DNA of 64,000 nt from an uncultured Clostridia bacterium (GTDB taxonomy: Bacteria > Bacillota > Clostridia > TANB77 > CAG-465), in the NCBI GenBank assembly GCA_934169925.1, contig CAKPOO010000003.1, forward strand, positions 62,847 to 126,846, read 5' to 3'. The notes beneath the pieces are model-generated. The model was not told where the DNA came from. It searched no databases and saw only the letters and a list, made by a program, of their open reading frames with translations. A program made the translations under genes and the position numbers. Within the stretch, counting starts at the first letter, position 1. Each line of letters begins with the position of its first letter. Positions 48,535-52,554 of this stretch are shown here, in pieces.

Positions 48535-51500
48535 GTGTTAGATAACCAAAATGATAATGAAACAGAACAAAATTCAGATGACTTTAGTATGTCTGATATT
48601 GCAAGTGGGGTTGGCGGAATGGGTAAAAAAGCTGCTAGATCTCTGTTAGGTTTAAATTCTAAGAAAAAAGATGGTAAGGTAAAAAAAGCAGCAAAAACAG
48701 CAGCTAAAGAAGCAGCAAAAGCTTTATTAAAGGCATTAAGAGTCTTAATTAGTTTGATTCCATTACCTGTTAAAATTGGAATTTTACTTGTTTTAGTTTG
48801 TTTATTAATTTTTGCTTTTAAAAAGGGACAATCTATACTTGCATCAGATAACACTACAGATACCGTAAAAACAGTTATGGATGTATATGCTTCTGAGAAA
48901 AATACATCAGATGATGTAACAATAAAAGGTGAAAAAACAAATAGTCTTCAATATGCAAAAGATGATAATGAAGCAAAAAGAAGAAAAAGTTTAGCAAAGT
49001 TTTTTAAAGAAAATTCATCTTTTGTTAATATGAAACTTTCTGATATAAAAACTATATATGATGTTTATTGTTTAGAATATGAAATTAAAAAGAAAAAAGG
49101 TGAAAATACAACTTTAGATGATAAGTTGTACACTTCATATACAACTGTCGTTGGAGAAGATAGTAAATGGGATGAAGAAGATGGATCTTTAATTGAGGAA
49201 GTAAAATCAGTAATTACCAAAGATAAAGATGGAAAATATGTAGATAATTTAAATTTAAGAAATGAAAGAATTGCAAATGTTAAAGAGAAAGATTATTTCT
49301 TTGAAAAAATGTTATTAACTGAAAAATACAACATGAATCAAGTAAAATGGAATGATTATTCACATGTAACAAATGGTGGTTCTTTAACATTTTTAAAACA
49401 AGATAAAGAATATGGATTGCAATATCCAAAAAGTTTAAAACAAGATCAACCTTCAGCTTGGGATCCAAATAATTATTTAAATAGAGTAGTTAAAATTGAA
49501 GATGTTGATGAAACCGATGGAAAAGACAGAGAAACATTTACTAAATTACTTACTCCATATTTGCAATCTTGGCTTATTCCTCTTTCATATTATTCTGGTT
49601 TAGTATCAGAAGGTGTTGAAGCTGAAGCTGCTACTAAATTTGCATATAGTGTAATAAAAAATACTTATTCAAATGTAATTGCTAATAGGTATCAATTAGA
49701 AGATTATATTTTAAATACAAGATTTGATGAATATTATATTTACCATTATGCAACAAATTTTAATATTCAAGTAAGAACATATAAAGAAAATAAAACTAAA
49801 AGTTCTACAGTTAAAAAAACAACTACAAGTACAACAAAAGCAGGTGTGTATGTAGTTAGAAGTGATTCTGCCAAAACTCCACTTGGTTATTTAAAAAATG
49901 ATAAAGGCAATAGAATTCAATATACAGAAGATGAAGCTGAAGCTAAATGTTTAGAATTAAATGGAGATGCTAATACTCCAAAGTCAACACTTAATGGATA
50001 TAATTACTATTATGAAGCTATTGATGTGCCTGACTCTGAAAATACAACAAGTGATATATTACAGTATATAGTATATTATGCAGGAAAAACTGTTGATATA
50101 ACTAAAGAAGAACCAAAAATTGAAAATGTAACTGTAAACAAGACTACAAATGTTGAAAAGTATTCATTCTTTAATTCTAATGGTAACGCATTAGCAGTTA
50201 GTACAACACCAGTATTAGTAAAAACTGAGTATTATAATCAAAGATTAGAACCTACTACCGTGACTGTTCCAGATGATGGAATTTTAACAGAAGGGATGTT
50301 AGGTAAGGTAGACTATAAAAAAGAATCTTTATTACAACAAATTGATCAAAATAAAGAAACTGGTAGATATGTATCTGTTAGATATTATGTTAGTCAAGCT
50401 CGAACTTTTGATGCTAAAATTGCAACACAATATAACTATATAAAATATTCAGTAAATGATGTAGAATCAAGAATAAATGAAGCATCAAAAAGTGAATTAA
50501 AAACTGAAAAATTTGAGGAAAAAGATCATACAAATGAAATTACACAAGATCAAGTAAAAAATACACTTAGTGATGATAAATCATTAAATGATATTGCAAA
50601 TGATTTGGATAGTACTATTTTAAGCGTTGAATCAGCTTATAGCTATGGTTCATCAGATGAAGCTGTAAAGAAATTAGATGATAATAGAGGCACAAAATTA
50701 AAAGATTTAATGATAACTAAAGATGGTGAAACTGATGATAAATCATCTAAATATATAGTAATTAAGTTTAAATCAAATAAAAATTACACAGAAAAAATAG
50801 GTAGTCCTGATGGTGAGGTACAATTAGCAACAGGTAGAGTTTTAAACAATGTTGTTTCGCCAACAGGTGAAAAAATGGGAATACATTATATCCAAAGAAA
50901 GTGGAATGACAAATTAAATATTTACGCTACTAAAACTGATCCATATACAGTGGAAGATTTAAAAAACTGGAATAATGATTATGAAAAGAAAAATAGTATA
51001 GTTGATGGTTTTAATTTTAATACAAGACTTGCTATATCTTATGAGTCTACGAAATATTATGAAGATTTAGAAAATCAGAAGATACTAAATAGAGTAGACT
51101 TTATGAATGCAAATAGAAGTATTTTTAAGGATTATTTATATGATAGAGCACCATATTCTGATACAATTGGTTATTATAGATCAATTTTACAAACTGGAAT
51201 GGACGAGCTTAAAAAGCAATTTTCAGATATTTTAGAAAGAAATAATACATATCCTTTTAAATATGGAGAAACATTAGGTTTTAGAGAACTAGTAGAAAAC
51301 AATTTAGGTGGTAGTACTTCAGTATCTGCAGGATTTATATGGCCAGTAGATAATAAATATGTATCAGCAATTCAAGGTTATTCTACAGTATATGGTGAAT
51401 CACATTCAGGTGTTGATATATGGTCTGATACTGATGGTAATACTCATCAATGGTCTTGGGTTGATAGATTTCCAGTATATGCAATCGCATCTGGGACCGT

Positions 51501-52554
51501 AATAGTAGCATCAGATTCACAAATTCCTAATACTCAAGTAATTGATAACTCAGGACTTGGTAACTATATTGTTATACGACATGAAAGTGGATATATATCA
51601 TCATATGGACATTTAAGTTCAGGAACTTTTAAAGTAAAAGAAGGCGATGTGGTTACACAAGGTCAAATAATTGGATATGTTGGCTCTTCTGGTAGTTCAA
51701 GTTGTATGCATTTACACTTTAATATATATGATAATTCAGATGGTACTGATAGAAGGTCAGCTGAGAATAAACTAGATCCATTAGATTTTTATGTTGTAGA
51801 AATAAATCCAAATGTTGATAATTCAGGTAATATACCAGAATATGCAGCTTTAAAAGCAGATGAAAGTCTTAGAAGTAAAATCACAATGTTTAATGCATAC
51901 ATGATTACCGGTTCAAAAGGTGGTGGAACTGGAGCGTTGCATAGTACAGTATTTGCAGATGCAAAATCTTTCGTTGCCGCTACAAAAGAAGGATTAAGCA
52001 AGAGAAGTAATATAGATCCTGATAGTGATTTATTAAAAGACGATTGCTTAGAGTTAGTATATAATAAATGTGTAGCTGCTAACAGGAGTCCAGAACTTTG
52101 TATTGTTATAGCTATTTCAGAAAATCATAAATTAAATGGATATGGCCAACACAACTATTGGAATGTAGGTGTGTATAATGATGATAATCCAAATGATTCA
52201 TCTAAAGGATATTCACAATTTGAACAAGCGTTGGATACTTGGATTTCAAATTCATCTTGGATTGATGATCCTAACGACGATAGGTATCAGCGAGCGGTGC
52301 AAAGAATTGATAATTGGGGATCAAAATCTAGCTCAGAAGGTCCTCCTAAAAATTTTGCACCTGGTGTGTATGATTCAATAGCGTTTTATAAATGTGTATA
52401 TTCTACACCTAATGCAGGAGGAGAGGGAGAATTTGCACATCCTAAATTAGAAGATACATTAGGTCCAGAACAGTATTGGGTCGGATTTGCTAGATACTTA
52501 GATGATGCAGTTGATATCTTGCTTAATATATGGAAAGGTGTGTATGGAGGTTAA
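48535..52554 (+). CDS. Large membrane-anchored cell-wall hydrolase: M23 peptidase domain plus a second C-terminal Cys-containing putative hydrolase domain (VirB1 or PrgK/TcpG functional analogue)
   Basis: 1339 aa with a GTG start at 48535 and an N-terminal TM. M23 motifs near residues 940-1060 (HSGVDIW, GLGNYIVIRHESGYISSYGHLS, CMHLHFNIYD) and a C-terminal Cys-containing domain about 270 aa long. Confidence 0.7.
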   Translation: MLDNQNDNETEQNSDDFSMSDIASGVGGMGKKAARSLLGLNSKKKDGKVKKAAKTAAKEAAKALLKALRVLISLIPLPVKIGILLVLVCLLIFAFKKGQSILASDNTTDTVKTVMDVYASEKNTSDDVTIKGEKTNSLQYAKDDNEAKRRKSLAKFFKENSSFVNMKLSDIKTIYDVYCLEYEIKKKKGENTTLDDKLYTSYTTVVGEDSKWDEEDGSLIEEVKSVITKDKDGKYVDNLNLRNERIANVKEKDYFFEKMLLTEKYNMNQVKWNDYSHVTNGGSLTFLKQDKEYGLQYPKSLKQDQPSAWDPNNYLNRVVKIEDVDETDGKDRETFTKLLTPYLQSWLIPLSYYSGLVSEGVEAEAATKFAYSVIKNTYSNVIANRYQLEDYILNTRFDEYYIYHYATNFNIQVRTYKENKTKSSTVKKTTTSTTKAGVYVVRSDSAKTPLGYLKNDKGNRIQYTEDEAEAKCLELNGDANTPKSTLNGYNYYYEAIDVPDSENTTSDILQYIVYYAGKTVDITKEEPKIENVTVNKTTNVEKYSFFNSNGNALAVSTTPVLVKTEYYNQRLEPTTVTVPDDGILTEGMLGKVDYKKESLLQQIDQNKETGRYVSVRYYVSQARTFDAKIATQYNYIKYSVNDVESRINEASKSELKTEKFEEKDHTNEITQDQVKNTLSDDKSLNDIANDLDSTILSVESAYSYGSSDEAVKKLDDNRGTKLKDLMITKDGETDDKSSKYIVIKFKSNKNYTEKIGSPDGEVQLATGRVLNNVVSPTGEKMGIHYIQRKWNDKLNIYATKTDPYTVEDLKNWNNDYEKKNSIVDGFNFNTRLAISYESTKYYEDLENQKILNRVDFMNANRSIFKDYLYDRAPYSDTIGYYRSILQTGMDELKKQFSDILERNNTYPFKYGETLGFRELVENNLGGSTSVSAGFIWPVDNKYVSAIQGYSTVYGESHSGVDIWSDTDGNTHQWSWVDRFPVYAIASGTVIVASDSQIPNTQVIDNSGLGNYIVIRHESGYISSYGHLSSGTFKVKEGDVVTQGQIIGYVGSSGSSSCMHLHFNIYDNSDGTDRRSAENKLDPLDFYVVEINPNVDNSGNIPEYAALKADESLRSKITMFNAYMITGSKGGGTGALHSTVFADAKSFVAATKEGLSKRSNIDPDSDLLKDDCLELVYNKCVAANRSPELCIVIAISENHKLNGYGQHNYWNVGVYNDDNPNDSSKGYSQFEQALDTWISNSSWIDDPNDDRYQRAVQRIDNWGSKSSSEGPPKNFAPGVYDSIAFYKCVYSTPNAGGEGEFAHPKLEDTLGPEQYWVGFARYLDDAVDILLNIWKGVYGG

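Follow-up and report, generated by a model that had tools for sequence, protein, structure and literature searches.

Gram-positive homologues of VirB1, a wall-remodelling enzyme of type IV secretion systems (T4SSs), have a modular build (PMC12857230; PMC4027160). PrgK, encoded by pCF10 of Enterococcus faecalis, is composed of an intracellular N-terminus, a transmembrane (TM) helix and extracellular LytM, glycosidase and CHAP domains; conjugation requires it, and the VirB8-like protein PrgL directs it to the machine (PMC11323569). Here we describe a 1339-residue protein encoded at positions 48535-52554 (forward strand) of a 64-kb stretch of DNA from an uncultured Clostridia bacterium, hereafter the window. 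We propose, at about even confidence, that it is a dedicated peptidoglycan hydrolase of a chromosomal T4SS-like apparatus with a VirB2 array, docked to the machine by a scaffold, and a functional counterpart of VirB1 and PrgK. The reading frame, predicted topology, M23 motifs, predicted GH73 fold with its Glu, synteny, domain swapping and recombination described below were all computed here.

A multi-domain hydrolase that ends a Gram-positive T4SS locus is of a kind already known. New are a conserved scaffold without a match in any library tested, a predicted GH73-fold domain so divergent that 1.84 billion representative proteins include only four relatives, the variety of catalytic heads that syntenic orthologues bear on one chassis, and the recombinational swap of the catalytic cassette between near-identical strains.

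The window protein resembles PrgK, a member of the 'DELTA' class (large peptidoglycan hydrolases of Gram-positive T4SSs), in its T4SS operon, its predicted intracellular N-terminus and single TM helix, and its combination of a LytM/M23 domain with a glycosidase of the lysozyme superfamily (PMC11323569; PMC12857230). PrgK carries an SLT/muramidase domain, a CHAP domain and a degenerate LytM domain, whereas the window protein has a canonical M23 domain, a GH73-fold domain and no CHAP, with about 700 residues of conserved scaffold and inserts separating the TM helix from the catalytic domains. TcpG (pCW3), TraG (pIP501), Orf14 (Tn916) and CwlT (ICEBs1) likewise join glycan- and peptide-cutting domains and are dedicated to T4SSs (PMC4027160). 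These four proteins are borne on plasmids or integrative and conjugative elements (ICEs) and lack the scaffold, whereas the window gene is chromosomal, vertically inherited and part of a family of 754-1890 residues. TcpG consists of a FlgJ-type glucosaminidase and an NlpC/P60 domain, and all four are roughly 330-380 residues long. The size of the window protein, which a preliminary description had called very large, is unusual against PrgK and TcpG but normal within its own family. SLT, CHAP and NlpC/P60 domains are absent from the window orthologue by Pfam and present in other orthologues. The analogy with PrgK, TcpG and VirB1 drawn in the preliminary description gains support from the position in a T4SS locus and from an N-terminal TM helix followed by extracellular hydrolase domains, as judged from hydropathy.

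The T4SSs of Patescibacteria provide a second comparison. That of Ca. Southlakia epibionticum includes peptidase and lysozyme genes by virB4, essential for epibiotic growth (PMC12102498). Like the window locus, these systems are chromosomal, contain VirB2 pilin arrays, usually lack a relaxase and have wall hydrolases attached (PMC12102498; PMC12857230); they belong to a different phylum, and the likeness is one of gene content, not of compared sequences. According to a 2025 review, Patescibacteria are the only group in which monoderm T4SSs are known to have VirB2 pilins (PMC12857230), so that the array of the window, in a spoIIIA-bearing Clostridia genome, looks like a second monoderm case.

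Scaffold and catalytic domains of the hydrolase

The position and length of the reading frame are exactly those given in the preliminary description. Its GTG start is credible, given the Shine-Dalgarno-like AAGGCGGTGA and the gap of 16 nt from the stop codon of the upstream gene. The features of the gene are as follows.

48520-48529, forward: Shine-Dalgarno-like AAGGCGGTGA, 5 nt before the GTG (sequence read directly)
48535-52554, forward: whole open reading frame, GTG start, 1339 aa and stop codon
48535-48732, forward: aa 1-66, tail predicted to be cytoplasmic, first acidic and then rich in Lys, with a comparable one in orthologue P0013
48733-48822, forward: aa 67-96, single TM helix, predicted N-in/C-out (Kyte-Doolittle scan)
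48823-49257, forward: aa 97-241, weakly conserved juxtamembrane region, without a catalytic domain in the window orthologue
49258-49773, forward: aa 242-413, scaffold block A, broken by a query-specific 25-aa insert (aa 301-325)
49774-50370, forward: aa 414-612, insert 1, specific to the lineage; strain L032 has a 54%-identical version in its place, which makes it a second variable cassette
50371-50556, forward: aa 613-674, scaffold block B
50557-50883, forward: aa 675-783, insert 2, likewise specific to the lineage and poorly occupied in orthologues
50884-51330, forward: aa 784-932, scaffold blocks C (784-826) and D (841-932)
51000-52554, forward: strain-variable catalytic cassette (nucleotide identity 90, 85 and 71%)
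51331-51804, forward: aa 933-1090, M23 (LytM-type) metalloendopeptidase domain
51403-51405, 51415-51417, 51610-51612, 51709-51711 and 51715-51717, forward: M23 residues H957, D961, H1026, H1059 and H1061
51805-51924, forward: aa 1091-1130, linker, with low predicted local distance difference test (pLDDT) scores at the start of the model
51925-52551, forward: aa 1131-1339, predicted divergent GH73-fold (lysozyme-like) glycosidase domain
52120-52122, forward: putative catalytic Glu1196, invariant in a six-sequence family
aa 1207-1212, forward: NYWNVG motif within the GH73-like domain

The preliminary description had raised the possibility that the frame is an artefactual fusion of two genes. Such an artefact, of assembly or frameshift, was not borne out. 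The protein is found in identical form on three contigs from independent sources (NCBI, Logan and ENA), orthologues of 1332-1333 residues from other samples share its architecture, and P0013 (1247 residues), whose C-terminal domain is 34% identical, has the same layout of TM helix, scaffold, M23 and C-terminal domain. These observations rule out a fusion artefact; with no point in its favour found, we give it a negligible probability. Two antisense frames inside the gene, at 48507-48854 (reverse strand, 115 aa) and 51789-52001 (reverse strand, 70 aa), are almost certainly spurious frames of an AT-rich gene.

Hydropathy analysis predicts one strong helix (aa ~67-96) after the Lys-rich tail, in keeping with the N-terminal TM helix of the preliminary description, and a single-pass N-in/C-out topology with an extracytoplasmic part of ~1,240 residues. 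The ~900 residues that had been taken for an unannotatable spacer instead hold a conserved four-block scaffold, common to syntenic orthologues with quite different catalytic domains. Blocks A-B-C-D occur in the same order in the query and in distant relatives. They are marked by the motifs YKHxLLTEKYNFNxIxW, PYLQSWxIPL and FAYxVxKxAxxxIxxNRY in block A, YYxxxAxTFDxxIxNxFNYxKY in block B, RxWxDxLxQ in block C and LNxIDFxNSNPxIYxxYL ... LPFxYGxSLG in block D. An alignment of 22 full-length syntenic orthologues contains 19 invariant positions and 26 nearly so, almost all of them in or beside the blocks. Occupancy and identity profiles define the lineage-specific inserts at aa 301-325, 414-612 and 675-783, which enlarge a scaffold core of ~350-450 residues in the window protein; measured from block A's first motif through block D's last, the scaffold is 321-916 residues long among orthologues. 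The reported richness in Lys, Asn, Tyr and Asp holds in part. Tyr, Asp and also Thr are enriched (7.7, 8.3 and 9.0%, against 4.9, 5.7 and 5.3% in neighbouring proteins), but Lys and Asn are near the level of neighbouring proteins, their abundance being largely due to a genome of 25% GC.

The scaffold has no match in Pfam or NCBIfam, no sequence relative in the PDB at E<=10, whether its profile was built from 5 or from 15 sequences, no match by tblastn among 50,697 phage records, none in 72,556 plasmid records (whether pCF10 is among them was not checked) and no relative among IMG/VR viral contigs. An 'endolysin' profile of 2898 positions, phrog_6700, can be aligned to aa 626-1105; given the empty search of phage genomes with the scaffold, this match is probably carried by the M23 part.

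The M23 domain named in the preliminary description is recovered by domain search. Pfam Peptidase_M23 (PF01551) matches aa 980-1069 with E=1.6e-21 and 76.8 bits, against a cut-off of 28.7; M23 chains of the PDB match at E down to 1.7e-8, and NCBIfam returns M23 enzymes only, all sub-threshold. No domain besides Peptidase_M23 was found in the Pfam and NCBIfam scans of the 1339-residue protein. All five active-site residues are present (H957-SGV-D961, H1026 and H1059-L-H1061), and the motifs are also kept in the alternative allele P0003. With its motifs intact, the window M23 domain would be a canonical endopeptidase predicted to cut, unlike the degenerate LytM domain of EnvC.

The second, Cys-containing C-terminal domain proposed in the preliminary description is indeed a distinct domain (aa ~1131-1339) with four Cys, but none of these is invariant in the six-sequence family. 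Its structural model is all-alpha and lysozyme-like. A Foldseek comparison of this model with the PDB and BFVD gave no significant match, with GH73 entries among the weak ones. Aligned by hhalign, the profile of the C-terminal family (A4) matches a recognised GH73 profile (A2) at 96.4% with E=1.3e-9, over only 69 columns, and Glu1196 aligns with the Glu residue found in the QESG and GEGG motifs. The window domain has no PF01832 match even at E<=1; its relative P0015 has a sub-threshold match over the homologous stretch (23.3 bits against 30.2). On the basis of profile and model, we assign the domain to a divergent GH73-fold glycosidase with Glu1196 as putative catalytic residue. The predicted fold and the position of the putative catalytic Glu on its helix are as in the GH73 N-acetylglucosaminidases LytB, FlgJ, Atl-GL, AtlA and Acp, from which the domain differs in lacking the PF01832 match and in having just four distant relatives in the 1.84e9 representative proteins. 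Among the types suggested earlier, transglycosylase therefore comes nearest. The CHAP, amidase and NlpC/P60 readings were rejected, as there is no Pfam match, the Cys are not conserved and the model is all-alpha and lysozyme-like. A profile search of the PDB with the C-terminal family returned only TALE-repeat artefacts, in which many ~3-bit repeats are summed.

Since the scaffold is the only part conserved family-wide, the protein could also be mainly a structural or adhesive stalk, with the scaffold as a wall-spanning ruler or pilus adhesin and the catalytic domains serving in wall binding or regulation, in the manner of the degenerate LytM and CHAP domains of PrgK. Those two domains are regulatory and not catalytic (PMC11323569), and the HxH motif of M23 is altered to HLD in orthologues P0006 and P0014. 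The window protein, however, has all M23 catalytic residues and the GH73 Glu intact, both allele classes retain them, and the cassettes are under purifying selection (see below). We consider a mere stalk improbable and retain the hydrolase reading.

Exchange of catalytic cassettes

Scanned with Pfam, the 22 syntenic orthologues (754-1890 residues) carry 13 wall-active families on one chassis. M23 is found in 7/22, NlpC/P60 and Peptidase_C39_2 in 6/22 each, and GDSL esterase, GH24 phage lysozyme and CHAP in 4/22 each; SleB-like Hydrolase_2 and GH73 occur in 2/22 each, and Lysozyme_like, Phage_lysozyme2, SLT, Peptidase_M15_4 and YkuD in 1/22 each. The catalytic domains occupy three sites, one on the N-terminal side of block A, one between C and D, and one on the C-terminal side of D. 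Two N-terminal architectures are observed, one with a cytoplasmic tail and a TM helix (aa ~48-75), as in the window, and one in which NlpC/P60 comes after a signal-like segment (aa 2-7).

Replacement of the catalytic end is also seen within the species. The window was compared over ~23 kb, in bins of 500 nt, with two conspecific contigs, L030 and L032, and dN and dS were calculated by the Nei-Gojobori method. DNA identity is 99.5-100% (L030) and ~98-99.5% (L032) almost throughout. At 51000-52499 it drops to 90, 85 and 71%, returning to 98-100% right after the stop codon. Against L030, dS is 0 over aa 1-415 and rises to 0.26 in block D, 0.36 in M23 and 0.58 in the GH73-like domain, with dN/dS of 0.27, 0.33 and 0.45. 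L030 and L032 share the alternative allele (95% amino acid identity to each other), so that at least two allele classes circulate, and the GH73 Glu is kept in both. In L032, insert 1 (aa 416-612) is replaced too, at 54% amino acid identity. With dS high and dN/dS below 1, local positive selection was rejected as the cause of the 3' divergence. These values instead indicate an old, divergent and still constrained allele, imported through homologous recombination whose breakpoint lies near blocks C/D, and purifying selection on the cassettes, as estimated from the sequences.

Such diversity raises the question of which wall is cut. In the main rival reading the hydrolase acts outward: displayed on the surface or released with the T4SS or pilus, it would cut peptidoglycan belonging to a partner, recipient or prey and so permit contact-dependent transfer or exploitation, as has been proposed for the T4SS of Patescibacteria, with cassettes that track the wall chemistry or defences of the target. 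This is compatible with the model of a T4SS-dedicated hydrolase, and we regard it as possible, if somewhat unlikely. The 13 families on one chassis among the 22 orthologues favour it, as does the within-species replacement of only the catalytic end (dS 0.36-0.58, against 0 in the 5' part). Large multi-domain ejection or tail proteins of phages, such as cyanophage A4 internal protein 9k2v_E and phrog_6700, also pair M23 with a lysozyme-like domain, to penetrate a wall from the outside, and 9k2v_E is matched by both domains of the window protein (rank 39 for the C-terminal one); they differ from the hydrolase in that its scaffold is not found in phage genomes or viral contigs and its locus holds no phage genes. 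A constant N-terminal part with variable C-terminal catalytic modules is likewise a feature of polymorphic toxins. In these, however, a cognate immunity gene lies directly downstream, whereas the gene next to the hydrolase is a conserved S1-domain gene (53-75% identity) and nothing immunity-like is found there. Further points speak against outward action: the window protein is predicted to be membrane-anchored and not secreted, dN/dS below 1 gives no direct sign of an arms race, and the same diversity could result if an exposed protein were under antibody, immune or phage pressure. A literature search on the lineage TANB77 / CAG-465 found nothing useful.

The T4SS-like locus and its neighbourhood

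The scaffold alignment was scanned against 185,579 species-representative genomes and yielded 25 loci, all in metagenome-assembled genomes of uncultured gut 'Clostridia bacterium' or 'Clostridium sp. CAG:465 / CAG:921 / UMGS1761'. In 25/25 of these genome matches the scaffold family is confined to the T4SS locus position. A tblastn comparison of the proteins of the window cluster with the 25 loci revealed the same gene order across the retrieved parts, ending with the hydrolase followed by the S1-domain gene; the hydrolase is thus the last gene of the T4SS-like cluster, as the preliminary description had it, and syntenic in more than 20 genomes. Identity across loci is 77-86% for VirB4, 53-75% for the S1-domain protein, 47-57% for u461, ~24-50% each for u317, the VirB6-like paralogues, u289 and u201, and 24-38% for the hydrolase scaffold. 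The shared order and the uneven identities argue for a vertically inherited locus with the hydrolase among its fastest-evolving parts. This divergence, set against that of VirB4, also fits a hydrolase directed at other cells.

A second u201-u289-hydrolase (or u289-hydrolase) unit lies outside the main locus in two genomes, seen in L021 (CAAHEI010000055) and in L009 and L016 (USJA01, UMGS1761). Their joint duplication argues for one functional module and makes u201 and u289 (and u317) candidate docking partners of the hydrolase, and the second copies are possible donors for cassette exchange.

Synteny would also result if a general autolysin, or a hydrolase of cell separation or sporulation, merely stood next to T4SS genes through vertical inheritance of the region. 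The S1 and other housekeeping genes are equally syntenic, the window is chromosomal core (DnaE, PGI, a Mur ligase and spoIIIA), and M23 and GH73 pairs occur in ordinary autolysins of the Atl/LytB type, as well as among the PDB matches. The tight same-strand spacing with the upstream genes, the restriction of the scaffold family to the T4SS position in all 25 matches and the duplication of the u201-u289-hydrolase unit as a whole speak against such a passive neighbour, and essential autolysins are not normally so polymorphic. We therefore give the autolysin only a small chance, and a hydrolase dedicated to the T4SS-like apparatus remains our preferred reading. The other features of the locus and its surroundings are listed below.

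33379-46039, forward: rest of the T4SS-like locus, upstream of u317-u201-u289
33379, 33845 and 34255 (starts), forward: three VirB2/TrbC pilins in tandem
39579-46039, forward: four tandem ~540-aa VirB6-like paralogues, polytopic, with a weak match to Mycoplasma ICE VirB6-like proteins
46058-48518, forward: u317, u201 and u289, co-conserved membrane proteins, each with a hydrophobic N-terminal segment
52696-53517, forward: 273-aa S1-domain protein, next gene after the hydrolase
19046, 23724, 25213, 26882 and 28026, forward: type IV pilus (T4P) genes for PilM/N-like protein, prepilin peptidase, PilB, PilT and PilC

The locus further encodes, on the strand of the hydrolase, a 322-residue membrane protein with a TrbC domain. 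The VirB3-like u133 has two TM helices, and its L033 orthologue matches Pfam PrgI. The best NCBIfam matches of a 670-residue VirB4-like ATPase are the CD1110 and Mbov_0397 ICE families. u461 has one N-terminal TM helix; it bears a weak likeness to Mycoplasma VirB4 in the N-terminal part of the latter and weakly matches positions 97-271 of an 894-residue Mycoplasma ICE VirB4 model (E=7e-7). VirB4 thus appears split in two at 36129-39550 (forward strand), u461 being the first part and the 670-residue ATPase matching the remainder. The ~540-residue paralogues, with four N-terminal and two C-terminal TM helices around a central loop of ~290 residues, resemble 'extended VirB6'; their copy number ranges from one to four depending on the species, and p544 (43500-44500) and p486 (45000-46000) diverge between strains (88-98%, against ~100% on the flanks). 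A simple scan found no terminator-like site on the forward strand between 33830 and the end of the hydrolase gene.

No relaxase or coupling protein is found in the 64-kb window, and the gene content is of the Patescibacteria type: chromosomal, with a VirB2 array, VirB3, VirB4 and VirB6, and neither relaxase nor type IV coupling protein nearby. Together with the adjacent T4P cluster, this likeness is a further point in favour of outward action. Elsewhere the 64 kb consist of chromosomal core genes, among them RNase R, an SNF2 helicase, FTHFS, SpoIIIAE (spoIIIA), PGI, DnaE, YchF and a Mur ligase.

The T4P cluster (19046-29381, forward strand), a complete one, lies directly upstream of the T4SS, followed by 31021-32623, and only PGI, TraX (F-pilin acetylase family) and a 253-residue SSB-like gene separate the two systems. 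Small unannotated frames at 21427-23513 in this cluster are possible pilins; two were checked and have no Pfam match. The same pairing of T4P and T4SS is found in Saccharibacteria.

Downstream, the S1-domain gene follows the hydrolase in nearly every locus reaching that far (53-75% identity) and is probably a housekeeping neighbour. A 159-residue frame at 60163-60642 (forward strand), ~8 kb downstream, has orthologues in L030 and L032 with a weak match to Amidase_2 (N-acetylmuramoyl-L-alanine amidase), which would make it a further wall-active gene. Right after the S1 gene, 13 distinct loci (L033, L002, L005, L006, L012-L014, L017, L019, L020, L023, L027 and L029) encode a 340-residue protein with a faint Replic_Relax match, 70-85% conserved and absent from the window. 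A VirD4-type coupling protein lies near the locus in L033 only, 7 kb away, and is likewise absent from the window; in L033 the Replic_Relax-like and VirD4-like genes are at 16053-17075 and 18832-21330. These two genes make DNA transfer conceivable for the family.

Proposed mechanism and significance

For enzymatic activity, docking, the wall that is cut and a role in assembly, we infer the following model. One TM helix would insert the hydrolase N-in/C-out, so that a family-specific extracellular scaffold carries two catalytic modules at its distal end. The M23 endopeptidase would cut peptide cross-links and the GH73-fold domain glycan strands, both together opening a local hole in the thick Gram-positive wall for assembly of the T4SS and pilus. 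The scaffold would dock the hydrolase to the machine, probably via the co-inherited single-pass proteins u289 and u201, as PrgL does for PrgK, and the catalytic end would be an exchangeable cassette.

Several points weigh against this model. Between the scaffold and PrgK, TraG, TcpG or any protein borne on plasmids, no similarity is detectable, which limits homology to the generic catalytic folds. Membership of the PrgK/TraG/TcpG family is not supported beyond these folds, and the protein would work like its counterparts on a different chassis. Synteny is weak evidence, because the downstream housekeeping S1 gene is equally syntenic. Ortholog profiles of u201 and u289 gave nothing significant in the PDB, which leaves a VirB8/PrgL-like identity unproven. 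A single-sequence AF2 model of aa 901-1339, M23 part included, reached a pLDDT of 31 and was discarded. Cutting of the own wall gives no obvious reason for 13 catalytic types or for allele replacement within a species. Finally, both activity and interactions are predictions.

The crossing of a wall of 30-100 nm by Gram-positive T4SSs is poorly understood, and the targeting and control of a hydrolase are known in detail only for PrgK. The family described here is a natural experiment, with one conserved, putative docking scaffold, many interchangeable heads and a locus with VirB2 pilins. Cassette replacement at the level of strains suggests selection on enzyme specificity or antigenicity, and bears on whether the own wall or other cells are the target. 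The scaffold and the GH73-like domain are almost unrepresented in domain and structure databases, and their description may fill annotation gaps for abundant uncultured gut Clostridia. More speculatively, and in our view doubtful, the family could be a polymorphic wall-hydrolase chassis tied to a VirB2-pilus T4SS of bona fide Firmicutes, swapping cassettes by recombination among species and among strains and breaking through other bacteria's walls in a contact-dependent interaction like that of Patescibacteria. If true, this would extend lifestyle-associated T4SSs beyond the candidate phyla radiation and name their wall-penetrating component.

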